Of a stretch of DNA of 64,000 nucleotides, positions 54,417-63,915 are shown piece by piece. Every line of letters starts with the position of its first letter. The first letter of the stretch is position 1. Made by a program: the position numbers and the translations under genes. This DNA is from Candidatus Entotheonellaceae bacterium. GTDB taxonomy: Bacteria; Tectomicrobia; Entotheonellia; Entotheonellales; Entotheonellaceae. The stretch is taken from the NCBI GenBank assembly GCA_965238075.1, contig OZ250173.1, forward strand, positions 128,001 through 192,000. Direction: 5' to 3'. The notes beneath the pieces are model-generated. The model was given only the letters and a program-made list of their open reading frames with translations, did no database searches and had not been told where the DNA came from.

Positions 54417-54573
54417 TAGAGCATTTTCGGTTCGGAATGAATCGCACAATGCTCCGAGGCGGTCATTCCGGTCTTGACCCGGAATCCAGCGGCCCCCGAA
54501 AACCTCTGGACTCCGGCTTTCGCCGGAGTGACATGGATTTAATGTCAAGCCATTATGATCCAAAAGTGCTCTA
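54417..54573 (+). mobile_element. MITE copy 4, inserted at the CTAG containing the permease-HflK stop codon
   Basis: CTAG on both sides (54416-54419 and 54571-54574). Confidence 0.85.
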
Positions 54574-56781
54574 GCGATTTTGCTTCATGCCATTGGGTTC
54601 GAGCAACCACAGATCGAGTTCGTTGACATCTTGACGAACCGGCCGAAGGAATTTCTGCACCGGTGGAAGGACCTCCTCGGCGGTCTCGAGGCGCAGGCGA
54701 AATCGGGTGAGATCGGGGGCATCCTGGTATGCGTTCTGGCGCAGGCTGTAGGCCATTGCGTCGCCCTCGGCCCGCAAGATCTTTTCTTCTCGAAAAGCCA
54801 AGGCTTCCTCAATCATGGCCGCGGCCTCCCCTGAAGCGAGATTCACCTTCTCTCCGGCAAAGGTCAGGGCGCGATTTATGATATGCATTTTGTCTTCCTG
54901 TGCGCTGGCCACGTCCCGAAAAGCCTGATGCACGTCCTGGGGGGCATGCAGGTTGAGGAAACTGAGGGATACCACCTGCATGCCGGCCTGGTAGGCGTCC
55001 AAGAGATCTTGCACCCGCGCCAGACTTTGGCGCTCCATTGTGCCCCGCGCGGTCGTCAGAACCTCGTCAATACTGATTGTGCCGACCGTCTCTCGCAGCA
55101 CAGACAGGATCAGACTGCGTACGAGTGCGTCCGGCGCCGAGATGTTATAGGCATAGGCAATCGCATTATGGATGCGATATTGCACCGCAACGCTAAGGTC
55201 AACAATGTTGGCATCACCCGTTAACACGAAGGCCTCATCATCAACCTTCTCCTTTTGGAACCAGAAGCCAGTTGAGGCGATCGCCATGGGTACAGGGTTG
55301 CCCGGTCCGCCAACGGTCAGACGCTGTCGCGCCTGGGCGCGCACCGTGCCGCTCTGCGGGTCAGTGCTTCTGAAGCCGAGTTCAATGCGTCGGATCAGGT
55401 CCTTGTGCACGATCTGATGACTCGCAATAGGCCAGGGCAGACGGTAATGAAAACCAGGTGACAACTCCCCGGCCACAATTTGGCCAAAGCGCGACTTAAT
55501 GCCTACTGCTCCCGGTGGCACAGCAAAAATGCCGCTCGACAGATACAGCAGGGCTAACGCGAGCGCGGTAGCGCCTTGTAAACGCACGGCCGTCAGATGC
55601 ACCCCTGTATGGGCGGTGAGGCTATCGCGCACCCCCAGCCATTCCTCTGGTACATGGGTGCGTCGCATACTGAGGAACAACAAAGCTATGAAAATCACGG
55701 CGGCAGCGACTTTGACCTGTTCAGGCACCCCGCCGGTAGCACGTCCAAAGGTCGCCTGCGGTTCTATGTCCCAGGCCTGATAGAGCCAATTCAACGTATA
55801 GCCGGCCAACAGGGTCATCACCACAATGGCGCCCAGGTAGATGGCAACGATCTTCCGTCCCAGAAATTTCAACAGGATAGGAAAACTTCCCAGGTTTGTG
55901 GCTGGACCTGCCAGCAGAAACACCAGCGCGGCCCCAGGGTTCAACCCCTTCAGCACCAGTGCCGCAGCAATCGGGGTCGAGGAGGACGCACACGTGTATA
56001 TGGGGATCCCGAGGATGAGCATGGCCACCATGGTGGTGAAGCCGCCGCTCAAATAGCGTTCGATGATGGAGGCAGGCAAGAGGACTGCCACGAGGCCCGA
56101 CAGGACAATGCCCAGCACCAGCCAGTGACTGGTATCGTCCAGCAAGTCACGGAAAGCATAGGTAAAGATCGTTCGGACAGTCGTATAGGACCCAACTGAT
56201 GCTCCTGGTGTGACTGCCTTGTCGCTTTCAGCATGAGATAAGTGGGAAGTATGATCATGGTCATGAGTATGGGTATGATGCGGTGTGACTGTATGCGGCT
56301 CTGGCAGAGTTGTGTCGGGATGGGAGGCGTCCTGTTCTACCGCAGGTTCGGTGGTGGTGGTTTCCCTCTCGCCCCAAAAATTGGTTGCGATGCCAGCAGC
56401 GATCGCCGTGGCCATAGCAGACAAGGGGCGAAAAATGGTCATCAGTGGATCCAGCAAGGCGTAACTCAAGCTGATTGAATCTACTCCCGTCTCCGGGGTT
56501 GCAATGAGAAATGAGACAGTCGCCCCTGGCGTTGCGCCCTGTCGCCGCAATCCCAAGGCCGTAGGCAACACCCCGCAGGAGCACAGAGGTAGTGGCATGC
56601 CCAGCGTTGAGGCCCATAACACCGACTTGATCTTACCGGTACCGAAGAAACGCAGGAGGGTTTTCAGAGGCATGAGAACAGCGAGAACACCGGCGACCAG
56701 AAAGCCGAACAGGAGAAAAATGCCTGCTTCTTTGACCACAAACCAGGTCTCTTGCGCAACCTGGAGCAAAAACTCAATCAC
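54571..56781 (-). CDS. Fusion of a DUF318/SO_0444-type (ArsP-like) metal permease with His-rich loop and a C-terminal HflK domain
   Basis: PLPLCSCGVLP, FLIATPETGVDS, HHTHTHDHDH, PIYTCASSSTP, FLLAGPATN; then GFHYRLPWP, LTGDANIV, AFRDVASAQED, APDLTRFRL in one frame. Confidence 0.88.
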   Translation of the reverse strand: MIEFLLQVAQETWFVVKEAGIFLLFGFLVAGVLAVLMPLKTLLRFFGTGKIKSVLWASTLGMPLPLCSCGVLPTALGLRRQGATPGATVSFLIATPETGVDSISLSYALLDPLMTIFRPLSAMATAIAAGIATNFWGERETTTTEPAVEQDASHPDTTLPEPHTVTPHHTHTHDHDHTSHLSHAESDKAVTPGASVGSYTTVRTIFTYAFRDLLDDTSHWLVLGIVLSGLVAVLLPASIIERYLSGGFTTMVAMLILGIPIYTCASSSTPIAAALVLKGLNPGAALVFLLAGPATNLGSFPILLKFLGRKIVAIYLGAIVVMTLLAGYTLNWLYQAWDIEPQATFGRATGGVPEQVKVAAAVIFIALLFLSMRRTHVPEEWLGVRDSLTAHTGVHLTAVRLQGATALALALLYLSSGIFAVPPGAVGIKSRFGQIVAGELSPGFHYRLPWPIASHQIVHKDLIRRIELGFRSTDPQSGTVRAQARQRLTVGGPGNPVPMAIASTGFWFQKEKVDDEAFVLTGDANIVDLSVAVQYRIHNAIAYAYNISAPDALVRSLILSVLRETVGTISIDEVLTTARGTMERQSLARVQDLLDAYQAGMQVVSLSFLNLHAPQDVHQAFRDVASAQEDKMHIINRALTFAGEKVNLASGEAAAMIEEALAFREEKILRAEGDAMAYSLRQNAYQDAPDLTRFRLRLETAEEVLPPVQKFLRPVRQDVNELDLWLLEPNGMKQNR

Positions 56782-56875
56782 CTCTGCTCCCCCCACACCA
56801 AATGGCCAACCGTAAGAAGAGGGAAAAGAGAGGAAGAAAAGTCCCCCCCTCTCTTCATCCCTCTATCTTTCCAGC

Positions 56876-57910
56876 CTATTGGGGTAAGTACCTTTTATCC
56901 AACTGACAGGCGACGGAATAACTCGGGTCGACCGCGTTGGCGATCTCCAAGCTAGCTGCCTGCCCCAGAAGCTGGTTGGCCTCAAGCTTGTCATACCCAT
57001 AGTCTTCCACGAGCCAGTTGATCAGGTCGACACAAGCCAGCCTAAGGGCATCGATTAAGGGCCGTGTACTGCCGATGGACATGATATGGGTATCGTTTAC
57101 CAGTCTCGGCCAATTGATGCTTTTTCCCTTGATCAGATCAACGGTGAATTGCACGTCCATTGAGGTTTCGATGGCAGCACCATCGATCTCGCCATCCCCT
57201 TGGGCGGCATGGCCATCACCGATCATGAGCAACGCACCCGGCTCAAACACCGGAAAGTACATGGTGACGCCGGATACCACCTCATTGAAATCCATATTGG
57301 CACCGTGGGGGCCTGGGGTCAGGGAACTCCAGCACTCTTTTCCCGCCGTGACTGTCCCGATGGTTCCAAGGAATGGACGCAGGGGGACTTCCACTCTGCC
57401 AATTTTGCTCTTGGGCATGTCCAGGATGCCAACATTCCTCTCCAGGTCCAAGTTCCAGACAAAGAGGATATCCGGCGCCGGTTCGGTAATCATGGCCGTT
57501 TTGTACTCCGGTTCCAAGGTGCCAAAGTAGGGGATCGAACCGCCCCAACCCCAGTCCCGATTCGGAACGACTTTTTCGAGATGGACCACCAAGGTGTCCC
57601 CAGGCTCAGCCCCTTCGATGTAGAACGGACCGGTCTGGGGGTTCACCCTACTCAGATCGAGCTTGGGAAAGAGGGTCTTGTCAGTGGTGGAATAGACATC
57701 ATTAGACGCATCTCGCGTGGTGGTGATCACCGTATCACCAGGTGAGATGCGCATCGCCGGGGGGTGGGAATGGCAATAGGTGAAATACACCGTGTCACCC
57801 GGATCGTATTCCACGGTCGCCGCCGCCGCCGGGAGCGTCAAGATGAGCCCCATCATGACAGCCAACATCACCTGAACAGCTACCATCTTGCTATTGCACA
57901 AATGCCGCAT
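56876..57910 (-). CDS. Acetamidase/formamidase (FmdA_AmdA) family protein with signal peptide
   Basis: NPQTGPFYIEGAEPGDTL, PFLGTIG, HGANMD, GDGHAAQGDGE, AIET; N-terminal hydrophobic stretch ending AAAA. Confidence 0.88.
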   Translation of the reverse strand: MRHLCNSKMVAVQVMLAVMMGLILTLPAAAATVEYDPGDTVYFTYCHSHPPAMRISPGDTVITTTRDASNDVYSTTDKTLFPKLDLSRVNPQTGPFYIEGAEPGDTLVVHLEKVVPNRDWGWGGSIPYFGTLEPEYKTAMITEPAPDILFVWNLDLERNVGILDMPKSKIGRVEVPLRPFLGTIGTVTAGKECWSSLTPGPHGANMDFNEVVSGVTMYFPVFEPGALLMIGDGHAAQGDGEIDGAAIETSMDVQFTVDLIKGKSINWPRLVNDTHIMSIGSTRPLIDALRLACVDLINWLVEDYGYDKLEANQLLGQAASLEIANAVDPSYSVACQLDKRYLPQ

Positions 57911-57990
57911 ACATGTCTCCTTTGCCTCATTACATAAAGATATAAAGAAAATCGTCACTTAGCTGAAACGTCTACAACACGACCTCTCCC

Positions 57991-58968
57991 CTACTGCCCC
58001 GCCACGTCCATCGGCCTCACCTCCTCCCTGTTCTGGAGCACTGGCGAACGCGGGTCATGAGTCCGAAAGTAGTAGGTGCTGTCATAGAGCATGTGGAACA
58101 ACTCAGAATCCAAAGCCAAGACCATTGTTGTTTGGGAATCGATGGAGCGGCGATAGGTCTGCAGCGTCCGCAGGAAGGTGTAGAACTCCGGATCTTTGCT
58201 CAGCGTCTCAGCATAAATCCGCGCCGCTTCGGCTTCCCCTTCGCCCCGATACTGCTGGGCAATTTTCAAGGCCTCGGCCATGATCGTGGCTTTTTCTCGG
58301 TCCGCGGTGGCCCGGATCTTCAGCCCTTCCTCCTCCCCTTCGGAGCGGTATCGCATACTGATGCGCGTACGCTCCGATTTCATGCGAGAGAACACACTGC
58401 TGCGGTTCTGAGCTGGGAAGTCCAAGCGCTGCAGCCGCACGTCGACCACGGCAATGCCGTAATCCCGCAGGGCAATCTCACGACATTCCCGGGCGACGGT
58501 GGCAAGGATGGCCTCAGCCCGGTAGCCCTCGGGATCCGTTGACACAAAGGCCGTCAGAGGATGCTGTCCGATGGCAGCGCCCAACGCTGCAAAGAGGATA
58601 TCGCTCAGTCGTGAAGCTGCTCCCGAGCGATCGAAAACGGTCTGGAGGAACTTTTGCGGGTCGGCAACGCGCCACAAAACAGCGCTGGCAGCGATGACAG
58701 TGGTCTTTTCCAGGGTGAGGAATTCGCCCAAAGGAGGAACGAGGATAAACAGGCGATTATCGAACCGGGTCACATTATGATAGGGATATTTGAGCTTCAG
58801 CCCCGGAGTTTTGATGACCCGTATAGGATTGCCGAATGCCGTGACCACCGCATATTCGCTGGCATCGACCGTGAAGAAGCAGAGGGTGCCCAGGAATGTC
58901 ACGCAAACGGCTGCACCCAGCAACACGACGGCCCTCACGCGTCCTTTGCCACCGGAGGTCATGGGCAC
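57991..58968 (-). CDS. hflC: HflC-like SPFH protein
   Basis: AVVTAFG, PGLKLKYP, VFSRMKSER, RSEGEEEG, DPEFYTFLRTLQTY. Confidence 0.88.
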   Translation of the reverse strand: MPMTSGGKGRVRAVVLLGAAVCVTFLGTLCFFTVDASEYAVVTAFGNPIRVIKTPGLKLKYPYHNVTRFDNRLFILVPPLGEFLTLEKTTVIAASAVLWRVADPQKFLQTVFDRSGAASRLSDILFAALGAAIGQHPLTAFVSTDPEGYRAEAILATVARECREIALRDYGIAVVDVRLQRLDFPAQNRSSVFSRMKSERTRISMRYRSEGEEEGLKIRATADREKATIMAEALKIAQQYRGEGEAEAARIYAETLSKDPEFYTFLRTLQTYRRSIDSQTTMVLALDSELFHMLYDSTYYFRTHDPRSPVLQNREEVRPMDVAGQ

Positions 58969-59819
58969 CGAACCTCTTATGAGAGAAGGAGCTAAATGGA
59001 AGGAACCCTGCGACGAATCAGGATTTGCCCATCCTTAGCATTACTTTCCTGATACTGTCAAGCGTCAATATTTCGGGCAGTTCTGACAGCAAGGTAATCG
59101 CACGAACCCTCCAATTTCATAGTGTTGCCCAACGCAACCGAGAAAGGAGGCGCTTCGTGCGACTGCTTCAGCGTTACTGCCGTAACTCACCCATAGCGGC
59201 CGGTCACATGCGCAACCTCCACCTGGAAGTTTGACCCTACAAGTCGGCGGTATCCCAAAAACAGACAGGGTCTTCACCGATTCCAGGCGTTTGGCACGAA
59301 AGGGTGCCGAAGAAAAAGCGGTTGTTTACCCGGTATTGGCATATGGAGATGTTCCGGGTTTATACATCGGACTCTAATGCCAGTCGTGCGCCTCGGGCAT
59401 CCGCAGGCGGGGTGTCGACGGCTTTCAGGTCCGACACGATGACAGCGCATTGCAGGCGAGACAAGGTGGGCGGGAAAAACCAGAAATAAAGCACTGGAAC
59501 AGAATATGGTGAGCGAGAGGCCCCTTTTCATAAAGTTGATCGGGGAAGGAGGTATTATCGGTGCGACGCCCTCCCCTAAGCAGGACTCTGTTCATAGCCA
59601 TCGGCGTTTTGACGACTTGAGAAATACGGCGCTGAGATTGTACATCCCGGTTGCCTCGACCCTTTTGGGTGCGATGGTGAAGTATCTCCTTTCTCCGAGT
59701 GAAATAGGCACCGCGTCAACCATCGCCGTGGCGTAACCAACTTGGAGTCCTGGAGACCCCGCTGGTTTCGGCCGTGCAAGCCATGCAGCTTAGCCCGCAC
59801 AAGGCAACAGCGCCAAGAT

Positions 59820-59888
59820 ACCCACTCATGAGAGGGTTGCCGATACTGGTGTCAGGGCGTATAAATGAAATTGATAACGGTTTTCATT
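59820..59888 (+). promoter_or_regulatory. Palindrome (59820-59837), sigma70 promoter TTGCCG-N17-TATAAA (59837-59865) and Fur-like box (59870-59888), copy 2
   Basis: ACCCACTCATGAGAGGGT; AATGAAATTGATAACGGTTTTCATTATTAT; homologous to 971-1038. Confidence 0.75.
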
Positions 59889-59939
59889 ATTATGTTACTG
59901 TGGCGGGAAGAACTTCCAAACACCGGGGGTAAGCCGTTC

Positions 59940-60189
59940 ATGGACTCGGTTGGTGTGAACCTGCAAAAACTGCGTGCTTCAGGATTTTGGCTGCCGGCTG
60001 CGGCAGATGCGCAAGATGCGGCGGCTGCGCCAAATGGATTTGGCCTCGTTCGGGCTAAGCTACAGGTACTACCAGCGGATCGAGGCGGGCCACGTGAACC
60101 CTACCCTGATTACCATGCACCGGCTGGCATCGGCGTTTGACGTGTCGGTGCACGATTTGTTCCGCCCGGAGATTCCAACGGAGGCCTAA
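59940..60189 (+). pseudogene. XRE regulator copy 2, +1 frameshift in an A5 run (or shorter intact form from GTG 59974)
   Basis: MDSVGVNLQK aligns to copy 1 MDSVVADIQE; remainder LQDFGCRLRQMRK...TEA lies in the next frame. Confidence 0.75.
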
Positions 60190-60333
60190 GGCGACTGATT
60201 CCGCGCAAGCCGCGCTCTCGTTGTCGCCTTAAGCGCTCCTCAGCTCACCCTTTGAACACATTGCCTCACGCCCTTCCCCCTCTGCGTCAGGCACACCCGG
60301 CAGGGGTCGCCGTGGGCTCCTGCCACTGCCTGA
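60187..60333 (+). ncRNA. Candidate structured 3'-UTR sRNA, copy 2
   Basis: Hairpins at 60202-60214 (inside stem 60187-60231), 60262-60293 (loop CCTTCCCCCTCT) and 60299-60324. Confidence 0.55.
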
Positions 60334-60423
60334 GGGATTGGTTGACCTCAACGGGGAACCTGACAAGGTGCAATTCGCAACACCCCGCGCCATCCACAAA
60401 GGTAGGCATTCATTCCCGTTAAC

Positions 60424-61509
60424 TCAACCGAGCCGATGCGGCTCCAGCTTTTCCCAGATGAAATCGACGCTGTGGCCGGGGCGTTCCGGGGCGCGGGCCA
60501 TGCCGTTGACGATGGGCAGAGGCACCTCCACGTAAGGCTCAACGCCGAAGCCGTGGATTTCGAGGTGGTTGGCGTTGGGAATGGCGGCCAGCAGGTGAAC
60601 GTGCAAGTCGTGGACGCCGTGCGAGGTGATGGGCAGGTTGTGGGCTTCGGCCATGTGCGCCACCTTCATCCATGGCGTGATGCCGCCGCAGTTGGTGACG
60701 TCGGGCTCGACGAACGACACGGCATTGGCAACCATGAACTTCTGGAACTCGTAAATGGTGTGCAGGTTCTCGCCGGCAGCGACGGGCGTCAGGCCCTCGG
60801 CAACGATGCGGGCGTGACCGGCGACGTCGTCGGGAATGGTGGGTTCCTCCAGCCAATAGACATCGTGCTCCGCCAGGGCGCGGGAGCGGCGAATCGCTTC
60901 GTCGACCGACCACTTCATGTTGGCGTCGACCATCAGGTGCACGTCCGCCCCGATTTCGTTACGCACCGCCCCGACGCGCTCGATGTCCTCGCCTAGCGTC
61001 TCCTTGCCCACGCGCATCTTGACGGCGTGAAAGCCGCTGTCCACCAGCTTTCGGTTCTGCGCGATCAGTTCGGGAATCGAAAAATTGAAATTGATGCTGC
61101 CAGCGTAGGCGTGCACATCCGGATTGTGCCCGCCGAGCAGGCGCCAGAGCGGAACGCCGAGCTTGCGAGCCTTGAGGTCCCACAGCGCGATGTCGATGGC
61201 CGACATGGCGAAGCTGGCCGCGCCGCCGCGTCCGGCGTAGTGCACGTGCCACCACATGTCTTTCCAGAGCGCCTCGATCAGGTCGGCATCGCGGCCTTGC
61301 AGAAACGGGCCCAGCTCGCCGTCGATGAGCGCGGCGATGCTCTTGCCGCTGTTGAGGGCGTAGGTATAACCGACGCCTTCCACCCCGTCGCCGTCGCGCA
61401 GGCGCACGACAACGAATTCGGAGTGAGTCATTTTGCCGTGCATGGAATCCTGCATGACGAACGGCAGCGGCAGGCGGTACAGAGAGGTTTCAACGTGCGT
61501 GATGGACAA
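60424..61509 (-). CDS. Mandelate racemase/muconate lactonizing enzyme family protein
   Basis: SAIDIALWDL, KMRVG, MVDAN, WLEEP, AGEN, PDV. Confidence 0.9.
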   Translation of the reverse strand: MSITHVETSLYRLPLPFVMQDSMHGKMTHSEFVVVRLRDGDGVEGVGYTYALNSGKSIAALIDGELGPFLQGRDADLIEALWKDMWWHVHYAGRGGAASFAMSAIDIALWDLKARKLGVPLWRLLGGHNPDVHAYAGSINFNFSIPELIAQNRKLVDSGFHAVKMRVGKETLGEDIERVGAVRNEIGADVHLMVDANMKWSVDEAIRRSRALAEHDVYWLEEPTIPDDVAGHARIVAEGLTPVAAGENLHTIYEFQKFMVANAVSFVEPDVTNCGGITPWMKVAHMAEAHNLPITSHGVHDLHVHLLAAIPNANHLEIHGFGVEPYVEVPLPIVNGMARAPERPGHSVDFIWEKLEPHRLG

Positions 61510-61743
61510 AGCGGTTTCCTCGACGAGTGTGCGGCGGCGTGGGCCGCCCGGGTGTTTGGGTGGACCTGTTCGGTCAGGGGTTGAAACGGCATTGTAAAGC
61601 AGCCGCCCGGCGGCCGTCTACCGTGCCAAGTGGCCGTTTGATTGCCCGATGAGGCGAGCGTAGGATAACTGTCCCGCAAGGGGCGAGGACCAATGTCAAC
61701 GGCCTTGTCAGGACATCATCCGCTCAATTTCAGGAGTGCGACC

Positions 61744-63393
61744 ATGTATACCTTGGACGTGTTGAATCCCGTCGCCCAGCAAAGGGGCGTGTTGACCACG
61801 AGGCCAATCAACCCGCGGCCCGCCAGCCTGCACCGCAAAACCGTCGGGCTGCTGTGGAGCGGTACGCATGGCGGCGACGTGGCGCTGAAACGCGTGGGCG
61901 AGCTTATTCAAGAGATGTTCACCGACGTGACCGTCAATTTCTACACTGGCGGCAACTACCCTGCCCCGCCATCGATCGTCCGGCAAGCCGCCGAGGAGTG
62001 TGACGTGGTCGTCGGCGCCACCGCCGATTGAGGAACTTGCGCGTCGTGGATGTGCCACGACATGATCGAGATCGAGAAGATGGGCAAGCCCGCCGTCCCT
62101 ATCGTCTCGGGACGTTTTGAGAAAGACGCCGTCGCCAGCTCCCGAACCTTCGCCATGCCGGATCTGAAATTCGTTACCGTGCCGCGGATCTACCGAAACC
62201 TCGCCCTGAATGAATGCGTCAAGCAAACGGAACTGGCGATTGACAACCTTGTCCACGCCCTCGTGAGCGGTGGGCAGGAGGCCGAGAACGGCGCCGACGT
62301 CCACGATCCCGAGCGGCGCTATTCGTACGACGCCGATGACCGCTACGCCGCGGTGCTGCGCATGAACGAGGATTTCCTGAGCCGCGATTGGGGCGACAGC
62401 CTGCCGCTTTACCCTGCTACCCGCCAGGCGGTTGATGCGCTTCTGCAAGGCACGTGTCTGCCGCCGGATCACCTGGTGTGCGACATGCCGCCCGGCTTCG
62501 GGCTCGCCACGGTGGAGAAGATCGCCATCAATGCGGTCATGGCCGGCGCCCTGCCGGAACACATGCCGGTGGTCATCGCCGCGGTCAAGGCGTTGTCGGA
62601 ACTCGGCCCGCACGGCGGCAAGTCGCTGCTGATGTCCACCTCACCGCACGCCCCGGTGCTGGTGGTGAACGGCCCCATCGCCGAGGAAATCGGCCTCAAT
62701 CCGAGGTCCGGGCTGGGACCGGGGCGCGACAACCGGGTCAACATCACCATTGGCCGCGCCTTCTCCCTGTGTCTGCGCAACATCGGCCAGTGGTATCCCG
62801 GCCACATGGACATGGACACCATCGGCACGACCCGCAAGTTTGTGCATTGCCTGGCCGAGAACGAGGCCATGAGCCCGTGGGAGCCGTTCCACGTCGACCG
62901 GGGTTTTAGGCGGGAAGAAAGCGCCATCAGCATCTTCGTCACCGACGGCGAACTGGACGTGCAGGATCAGGGCAATACCAGCGCCGAGGGGCTGCTCAAG
63001 ACCATCGCCTACGGCTGCACCTTCGGCACCCGCAGCCTCGGGGAGCGGCACGACGCCGAGCGGCTCATTTTCATGCCGCCGGACGTCGCCCGCCCGGTGG
63101 GGGCGCAGGGTTTCAGCAAGCGCGGCGCCAGGGAATTCATCCATCACAACGCCAACGCCAGCCTCGGGAAGATGATCCAGTACATGCCCCTGGAGGGCGA
63201 AGCGCGCGTCGCCGCCAACTGGAAGTGGCTGCTGAACCACAGCGAGCAGGAGCGCCTTGGGATGACCGTCCCGGTGCTCGAAAGCGCCGAGCGTTATTAC
63301 GTTCTGGTCATCGGCGCGGACCGCGCCAAGACGCTGGTGATGCCCAGCAGCCCGAGCCCGGCAACCGTCGGCATCGACGCGTACCGGCCTTGA
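61744..63393 (+). CDS. Probable selenoprotein (549 aa): UGSC-like domain with Sec-Gly-Thr-Cys fused to a ~350-aa C-terminal domain; UGA 62029-62031 = Sec96
   Basis: The two track ORFs are in one frame separated only by TGA: GATAD-U-GTCASWMCHD...EKMGKP; SECIS-like hairpin follows; SD AGGAG before 61744. Confidence 0.8.
62043..62061 (+). promoter_or_regulatory. Putative bacterial SECIS hairpin
   Basis: GTCGTGG-ATGTG-CCACGAC, a perfect 7-bp stem starting 11 nt after the UGA. Confidence 0.6.
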
Positions 63394-63435
63394 GCAGGTT
63401 GAGCACCACAGATGAAGCGCCTGCCATTCCCGGTA

Positions 63436-63707
63436 CTAATTCGCTGTGAGAGCCCAGGCGCACCAACTGTAACACGTCCCCGTTGGGCTTCCGGTAGATG
63501 AGGAGCAGATCGGGTCTGATGTGACAGTCCCGATGATCGCCACTCCCCCGTCAAAGGGTGATCGCGGTGCAGCGGCTCGAGCGGCAGGTCGTTGACGAGC
63601 GATACCAGCACCCCGACGAGAATGGTATCCAACGCGGCGCGGTTTCGGCCCCTTCGCACGCGTTTGTAGTCCCGTTTGAACCGCCCGGTGCGCTCAATCC
63701 GGTGCAT
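63436..63707 (-). pseudogene. yafQ: YafQ/RelE family toxin, frameshifted near 63540
   Basis: FKRDYKR...HRDHPLTGEW, then DHRDCHIRPDLLLIY...LVRLGSHSEL in another frame. Confidence 0.8.
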
Positions 63708-63915
63708 TCAGGTCTTCCATCAGCGCATCGACAGTCTCAAAAGACCTTACATTGCCGAGCCGGGCGTCGCGCATGGCAGCGATGGTTTCGTCATTTGGCA
63801 CCAAGGGATCGAACGGGAGGGCTTTTTCAGCCACCACGCGCATCAGCATCATGCGAAAGGCATCGGACACCGTCAATCCAATACTGGCCAGCACAATGGT
63901 GGCTTCCTCTTAGCG
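63694..63915 (-). pseudogene. dinJ: DinJ/RelB antitoxin lacking an intact N-terminus
   Basis: EEATIVLASIGLTVSDAFRMML...LPFDPLVPNDETIAAM; an in-frame TAA lies just upstream of EEA. Confidence 0.75.

Follow-up and report, generated by a model that had tools for sequence, protein, structure and literature searches.

The closest described relative of the gene analysed here is a fusion of the selenoprotein family UGSC with a domain called Unknown_1, which Zhang and Gladyshev (2008; PMC2398784, PLoS Genet 4:e1000095) report from Global Ocean Sampling (GOS) reads. Table 2 of that paper gives 255 UGSC sequences with selenocysteine (Sec) in GOS, placing UGSC among the most abundant ocean selenoprotein families, and its authors guessed a thioredoxin-like fold for UGSC. 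The family is also listed in a 2022 review and in a 2026 review (PMC13188914), the latter describing the functions of such selenoproteins as largely uncharacterized. Here we examine a gene at positions 61744-63393 of a 64,000-nucleotide stretch (hereafter the window) of the genome of Candidatus Entotheonellaceae bacterium (assembly GCA_965238075.1, contig OZ250173.1, positions 128,001 to 192,000). As judged from sequence comparison, what looks like a gene pair at this locus is one selenocysteine-containing gene, in which a member of the UGSC family is fused to its usual partner domain.

Like the fusion of 2008, the gene encodes a chain in which a UGSC domain bearing the Sec motif UxxC precedes Unknown_1. 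It differs from that fusion as follows: its motif is U-G-T-C; the Cys highlighted in their Unknown_1 block (M-A-G-C) is Ala in the window fusion and in 76/80 members of its clade; and their sequences are surface-ocean reads, whereas ours come from Entotheonella-like and Dehalococcoidia/SAR202 genomes. Knowledge of the UGSC/Unknown_1 kind itself is unchanged, the fusion having been in print since 2008. What is new here is a clade with UGTC and Ala at residue 269 (Entotheonella, SAR202), a confident full-length model and the presence of five UGSC(Sec) genes in one genome. A literature search on selenoproteins of SAR202, Entotheonella or Tectomicrobia showed no paper on this clade, as judged by the titles of the 12 matches listed out of 78, of which one names selenoprotein and a lineage together, a single time; none came up under the family name either.

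Read with translation table 11, the locus gives two open reading frames (ORFs), 61693..62031 (112 aa) and 62050..63393 (447 aa). When TGA is read as Sec (U), a single frame of 549 codons runs from the ATG at 61744 to a TGA stop at 63391-63393 (+), and its sole internal TGA is codon 96 (62029-62031), within the peptide V-V-V-G-A-T-A-D-U-G-T-C-A-S-W-M. A preliminary description, made from the letters alone, had taken the two ORFs for one frame broken by a single TGA, reading D-U-G-T-C-A-S-W and followed 11 nt later by a perfect hairpin; frame, peptide and hairpin are all in the sequence as it had them. We favour ATG 61744 over the upstream ATG 61693 because distant full-length homologs begin at the same position, sharing the start M-x-x-[LV]-x-V-[LMF]-N-P (alignment of 28 full-length sequences). 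The features of the gene, including the putative selenocysteine insertion sequence (SECIS), are as follows (MFE, minimum free energy):

61732..61736, plus strand: Shine-Dalgarno-like AGGAG, read from the sequence, 7 nt before ATG 61744
61744..63393, plus strand: predicted selenoprotein coding sequence, UGSC domain and Unknown_1 partner domain (open frame with TGA as U; tblastn over residues 1-549; AlphaFold2)
61759..62262, plus strand: UGSC domain, residues 6-173, predicted Rossmann-like alpha/beta/alpha (Pfam PF24696 and AlphaFold2 model)
62029..62031, plus strand: putative Sec codon 96, TGA, first residue of U-G-T-C (TGA in 79/79 covering loci; Cys in 37/50 distant homologs)
62038..62040, plus strand: Cys99 codon TGC, likely the resolving Cys of UxxC (Cys in 80/80 of the clade)
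62043..62061, plus strand: SECIS-like hairpin GTCGTGG / ATGTG / CCACGAC (part of the MFE structure; pairing kept; synonymous sites frozen)
62314..63390, plus strand: partner domain 'Unknown_1', residues about 191-549 (residue conservation; no Pfam/NCBIfam match)

Conservation of the TGA argues that it is decoded. A tblastn search with the read-through protein, using one genome per species, identified 123 candidate stretches, of which 105 were relatives. The clade is made up of the best 80 of these; they are 65-96% identical to the query and belong to records titled Candidatus Entotheonella/Tectimicrobiota and Dehalococcoidia/SAR202/Chloroflexota; most of them align over residues 1-549 in one frame. 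Codon 96 is TGA in 79/79 loci that cover it, in the context [AG]-D-U-G-T-C-[AC]-S-W-M (the remaining locus, L069, begins at residue 108). The true stop of the same 80 sequences varies (TAA in 32, TAG in 30, TGA in 17, and one runs off its contig), so that TGA is conserved only where it would be decoded.

More distant homologs were sought among 1.84 billion cluster representatives, which yielded 4404 relatives at E ≤ 0.001. We aligned 131 of the 150 representatives listed, without 17 that were short fragments and two whose length exceeds 700 aa. Fifty of these cover column 96, which holds Cys in 37, Ser in 5, Thr, Ile and Ala in 2 each, Gly and Leu in 1 each, and Trp in none. The Cys-bearing homologs read C-G-S-C in 26 of 37 cases, and their fusion forms are 539-591 aa long and 26-41% identical to the query. 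At column 99, Cys is found in 80/80 clade members (codon TGC in 74, TGT in 6) and in 33/50 of the covering distant homologs.

The machinery for Sec is present in the same genome, which is a single contig of 3.35 Mb: selD (318.8 bits), selA (606.7 bits) and selB (357.7 bits) all score above curated cut-offs, as does a tRNA-Sec (73.9 bits) that ARAGORN calls SeC with anticodon tca. Five out of five Dehalococcoidia genomes bearing the TGA form also have selA above cut-off. The preliminary description had suggested looking for Cys homologs aligned at residue 96 and for selA, selB, selC and selD in the genome, and both searches came out in its favour. Taken together, these comparisons strongly support decoding of UGA 96 as selenocysteine by the organism's own SelA, SelB, SelD and tRNA-Sec.

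The TGA is separated by an 11-nt spacer (62032-62042) from a hairpin with a 7-bp stem (62043-62049/62055-62061) and a 5-nt loop (62050-62054). The minihelix of E. coli fdhF also lies 11 nt from its UGA, a figure for which we found no confirming passage in the literature. Folding 62020-62090 gave an MFE of -24.1 kcal/mol (z -2.07), and 4/200 shuffles were as stable, so the hairpin is only modestly unusual by energy alone; it is its conservation across loci that sets it beyond chance. In the 80 clade sequences the synonymous sites of codons +3 to +10 are nearly fixed (TGC 74/80, GCG in 67/73 Ala, TCG 78/80, CAC in 72/74 His, GAC 79/80). Four-fold sites outside the hairpin vary, as at Thr +2 (ACG 28, ACC 26, ACA 17, ACT 9), and so do the Ser +26 codons (TCC 40, TCG 17, TCA 13, TCT 10). 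The upper-stem pairs (columns 16-21/27-32) are held in 59-64 of the 64 distinct clade sequences, and in 44/80 sequences the loop is ATGGT or ATGAT, where an extra A-U pair could cut it to three bases. In the four stand-alone UGSC paralogs that this genome also encodes, a hairpin stands in the same codon register but is written in different letters. No SECIS family of Rfam matches the hairpin, the search returning only chance-level miRNA/snoRNA rows (E 0.86-7.3). Direction of Sec decoding by a coding-region hairpin 11 nt past the UGA is strongly supported by this pattern of conservation.

That the locus hides a UGSC-family selenoprotein, as had been proposed, agrees with the Pfam UGSC profile (PF24696), which matches residues 6-173 straight across the TGA (E 3.1e-27; score 96.2 bits, cut-off 25; positions 2-170 of the 172-position profile). 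Compared with stand-alone UGSC proteins (PF24696/NF041046), the domain matches 169/172 profile positions, has Sec/Cys in the same column and, like the four stand-alone paralogs of its genome, is followed by a hairpin in matching register past the TGA. It differs from them in being fused to the partner instead of encoded beside it, in having Thr for Ser in the motif, and in its Pfam score, 92.6 bits for the fusion vs 162-199 for the four stand-alone copies of its own genome. The motif is also variable among distant homologs, which carry CGAC, CGGC, CGNC and CGTC besides the common form.

Public gene calls truncate the UGSC/Unknown_1 fusion. The best 120 homologs in a 90%-cluster database are 395-502 aa long, cover at most 81% of the query and all lack the N-terminal 95 residues, in line with the expectation that standard gene callers would split the gene. 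Among the 131 distant representatives, the first aligned residue falls at 97-130 in 65 and later in 16, the other 50 covering column 96. Starts at 97-130 are the pattern expected if gene callers took the first Met past the Sec codon, and we infer that these 65 are post-Sec truncations of the same type; truncation itself is shown just for the 79 TGA loci.

An AlphaFold2 model of the whole chain, built on a 132-sequence alignment, has a mean predicted local distance difference test score (pLDDT) of 94.2 and a predicted template modelling score (pTM) of 0.94, and is continuous through site 96. In the model the UGSC domain is a beta-alpha repeat, residues 30-180 forming a doubly wound beta-alpha-beta sandwich, and Sec96 lies between strand 88-94 and helix 97-112. 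Submitted to VIA-align (model residues about 27-181), the domain gave a flat, Rossmann-like list with a best Z of 11.6 and 312 chains at Z ≥ 8; no thioredoxin was among the best 50 of these 312 (Z 9.1-11.6). The fold of UGSC is predicted to be Rossmann-like, unlike the thioredoxin-like guess of 2008. We also considered a flavodoxin-like relative of the whole model and set it aside, the Foldseek rows being weak (best 1tik, E 3.9e-4, TMq 0.18). With its high-confidence model the locus is a clean example of the complete fusion, and the fused form lends itself to expression, to structure determination and to screens for substrates.

The partner domain (residues about 191-549) has no Pfam or NCBIfam family match. 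Its relatives among the 4404 representatives include stand-alone forms of about 340-370 aa, and its nearest clusters in the ESM Atlas are unnamed 'hypothetical protein' entries, with no usable named cluster. The preliminary description had singled out two motifs, WGDSLPLYPAT (residues 216-226) and TVEKIAINAVMAG (residues 256-268), as belonging to a fused domain of unknown function; the motifs are there, but the domain and its fusion had already been described in 2008. Residues 261-313 share A-[IV]-N-[AG]-V-M-A-G ... P-E-x-M-P-[IV]-[LV]-I-A ... V-N-G-[PS]-I with the Unknown_1 block of Fig. S1A of Zhang and Gladyshev, as compared by eye with that figure, and on this by-eye comparison the kind of fusion has been known since then.

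Most of the nearly invariant positions of the partner are Gly and Pro (including G219, P221, P225 and G268), joined by D218, T226, N263, R338, N346, D356, E372, E374 and W379. Position 269 is Cys in 112/132 sequences of the family alignment and Ala in the window fusion and in 76/80 clade members, the motif not having been located in the other 4. Because Ala replaces it, Cys269 would not be essential to the chemistry in this clade. The only other widely conserved Cys of the partner, C369, is present here, in 93/132 sequences of the family alignment and in 78/80 of the clade.

Modelled alone, the partner domain reaches a pLDDT of 93.7 and a pTM of 0.92. It has no clear solved relative: a profile search of the PDB returned no match at E ≤ 10, and a wide VIA-align search had a best Z of 5.7, with no chain at Z ≥ 8. 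Foldseek paired it best with the class I fumarate hydratase 7xky_A at E 2.2e-4, but with a TM of 0.22-0.26 and an rmsd of 16.8, and we rejected this candidate. The Z scores of Fe-S hydro-lyases were likewise low (7xky 4.9, 6mso 4.7, CyuA 9fsl 4.4, L-serine dehydratases 3.5-3.6), and we did not adopt such a reading because the partner lacks a three-Cys site.

The genome itself argues that the two domains work together. It holds five UGSC matches, with one TGA each, and six partner-domain matches. One of the five is the window fusion, and the other four are stand-alone UGSC(Sec) genes, each with its TGA in U-G-S-C, that directly adjoin a stand-alone partner paralog (4/4). The partner comes first in three of these pairs and UGSC in one. 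On the contig of the genome they lie as follows:

1106248-1107795, plus strand: stand-alone UGSC and partner pair
2942324-2943788, plus strand: stand-alone UGSC and partner pair
2668173-2669725, minus strand: stand-alone UGSC and partner pair
2110858-2112459, minus strand: stand-alone UGSC and partner pair
533417-534190, plus strand: sixth partner copy, without UGSC beside it

Functional coupling of UGSC and the partner domain is strongly supported by this arrangement of genes. With five UGSC(Sec) genes in a 3.35-Mb genome, each fused or adjacent to a partner, the organism appears heavily invested in the UGSC-partner system.

The nearest analogy for how the UGSC fusion may work is offered by the Grd/Prd reductases, an analogy that does not establish membership. 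In those systems a Sec nucleophile works with a resolving Cys and is re-reduced by a thiol system. As in PrdB/GrdB (PF07355, GRDB), the UxxC of the fusion sits between a hydrophobic beta-strand, which it directly follows, and a helix. The genome also holds a second split selenoprotein, of GRDB-like type (PF07355, profile 211-347), at 2947150-2948346 (-) of the contig: a 160-aa ORF reads in frame through a TGA (T-P-T-U-P-L-C) into 237 more residues. The homologs of this second protein are mostly the 227-232-aa piece after the TGA, and one source calls its full-length Cys forms (393-399 aa) 'D-proline reductase PrdB'. When it and its Cys homologs were compared with the family alignment of the fusion, hhalign set U on U and C on C, along with an E-x-x-G-x-[PT]-T-V strand, in weak alignments that are not significant (probabilities 1.85% and 3.0%, E 0.027 and 0.015, 47 and 36 columns). 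The fusion protein has no Pfam GRDB hit at E ≤ 0.1, and no PrdA/GrdE pyruvoyl proprotein was seen among the neighbours scanned, in which no search was aimed at them.

From these data a mechanism can be proposed. UGSC and the partner domain would form one selenol/thiol redox enzyme, in which D218, T226, N263, R338, E372, E374 and W379 would line a pocket of the partner that takes up a small substrate. Sec96 would attack the substrate, as nucleophile or reductant, and end in a Se-S bond with Cys99, which an external thiol system would re-reduce. Taken as a whole, the explanation of the locus as one 549-residue UGSC/Unknown_1 selenoprotein with Sec at UGA 96, joined to this proposed redox mechanism, is in our judgement very probable, although direct support for the mechanism itself is slight.

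We go further only tentatively. UGSC and partner might constitute an undescribed class of selenium-dependent enzymes, with a partner fold that has no solved relative, in which the fusion clade uses Sec96/Cys99 alone and which may reduce organic-acid or acyl-CoA substrates; this is possible, yet we would not call it likely. That Sec96 and Cys99 would act alone follows, in such a class, from the partner's usual Cys being Ala. The substrates are suggested by adjoining genes for enolase-superfamily proteins, family III CoA-transferase and enoyl-CoA hydratase, and the neighbouring genes give a hint of organic-acid or acyl-CoA catabolism. In the window a divergent enolase-superfamily (MR/MLE) gene lies at 60424-61509. 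Around one of the stand-alone pairs there are MR/MLE, a B12-binding domain, MeaB and enoyl-CoA hydratase; around the others, a TRAP-type DctP binding protein, ComA, a Zn-dependent alcohol dehydrogenase and a thiamine pyrophosphate (TPP) enzyme. Lineages of the Entotheonella/SAR202 type are known for degrading recalcitrant dissolved organic matter.

Several observations weigh against the explanation of the locus as a UGSC/Unknown_1 redox selenoprotein, or against parts of it. The evidence for Sec at codon 96 is wholly comparative. Contigs from RNA libraries add little: metatranscriptome contigs lie on the gene at 90-99% identity in four runs of two studies, and some from 2 runs of a single study (X12 record 2, X18 record 10) cross the TGA with 31 or more letters to either side, but they are weak evidence, indicating the presence of relatives' genes, since they may contain DNA and are blind to level, strand and ends. 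Their summed depth peaks in the bin that includes both TGA and hairpin, which fits the nucleotide-level conservation of that segment among relatives. For the hairpin, covariation within the clade is thin, consisting of one compensatory pair (G-C to A-U) in two sequences (both that have TCA also have CAT), which may go back to one event. In the MFE structure the lower part of the stem is not kept, columns 8-9/41-42 pairing in 37 and 9 of 64 sequences. An alignment of paralogs pairs in 88.9% of cells, vs 13.9-44.4% with partner columns slid, and 3/8 pairs change both sides, but its 9 rows were chosen by hand (the five genes of this genome and four fusion variants).

As to the family, the motif is U-G-T-C and not U-G-S-C in all 80 clade members, with the U, G and C positions kept and Thr for Ser. 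The NCBIfam equivalog model NF041046 (147 positions) gives 89.5 bits, under its cut-off of 125, and we therefore speak of a divergent UGSC domain and not of an equivalog of the stand-alone protein. As to the function, the partner has no clear structural or sequence relative, and so provides no template for the chemistry. The commonest neighbour, a family III CoA-transferase just downstream, occurs at 19/80 loci, and neighbourhoods are variable. Neither thioredoxin nor thioredoxin reductase recurs beside the gene across the 80 loci, nor is either fused in the homologs scanned (0/15); a Pyr_redox_2 gene about 2.7 kb from one stand-alone pair is not a conserved pattern.

Among the alternatives, the one that survives best concerns the division of labour. 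The UGSC domain could be only a dedicated electron carrier, a shuttle of the thioredoxin-like or GrdA-like sort attached to the enzyme it serves, with the partner doing all the catalysis and Sec96/Cys99 reducing a group on it. A UxxC at the N-terminus of a helix is indeed typical of dithiol redox carriers, UGSC and partner are separate genes in the four pairs of this genome, as is often so for a carrier and its enzyme, and Cys269, present in most of the family (112/132), could be the redox target. In the clade, however, 76/80 members have Ala at that position, and only C369 is left as a widely conserved Cys of the partner. Moreover, 13/50 of the distant homologs that cover column 96 have no Cys there, so that some family members would work without a redox centre at 96. 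On balance we regard a pure carrier role as rather unlikely.

A second alternative is that the locus holds two separate genes, for a 95-residue peptide and a 447-residue protein, or one gene broken by a nonsense mutation (a pseudogene). The two ORFs of table 11 speak for it, and so do the public calls of all 120 best homologs, which start past the TGA. Yet a nonsense mutation would not recur at the same codon in 79/79 loci from two phyla, at 65-96% identity and with conserved flanks; the TGA site lies inside the Pfam domain and within a predicted strand-helix element, and the Cys forms are uninterrupted. We give this alternative almost no credence. The last one, in which TGA 96 would be read as a standard amino acid (Trp or Gly recoding, or near-cognate read-through), fits a frame that is open under any code reading TGA as a residue, but it is extremely improbable given that the gene ends in TGA here and in 17/80 clade members, so that TGA is also a stop in the host genome, that the aligned column has 37/50 Cys, 0 Trp and 1 Gly, and that a complete Sec machinery goes with a conserved hairpin at SECIS-like distance.

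Beyond the single selenoprotein gene, a few other observations were made. The window fusion is 76-79% identical to Dehalococcoidia/SAR202 copies (L024-L027, L041-L042, L047-L050) vs 81% to that of Candidatus Entotheonella TSY1, and this similar identity across different phyla raises, on identity only, the possibility of lateral transfer. At the 3' end of the gene lies a toxin-antitoxin pair spanning 63297-63894, made up of a RelB-type antitoxin ORF (63694-63894, minus strand, PF04221) and then a YafQ-like toxin ORF. The latter matches just profile positions 2-54 of 88. Beyond them come about 80 residues of unrelated sequence that overlap the selenoprotein gene at its 3' end, antisense to it; a frameshift in the toxin ORF, or its decay, is probable. 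On the other side, 58969-60423 (about 1.45 kb, from a Band_7 gene to the MR/MLE gene) contains, on both strands, ORFs of at most 91 aa. It is preceded at 54571-58968 (minus strand) by three genes, for an ArsP-type permease fused to SPFH/Band 7 (741 aa), an acetamidase/formamidase-family protein and a second Band 7 protein.

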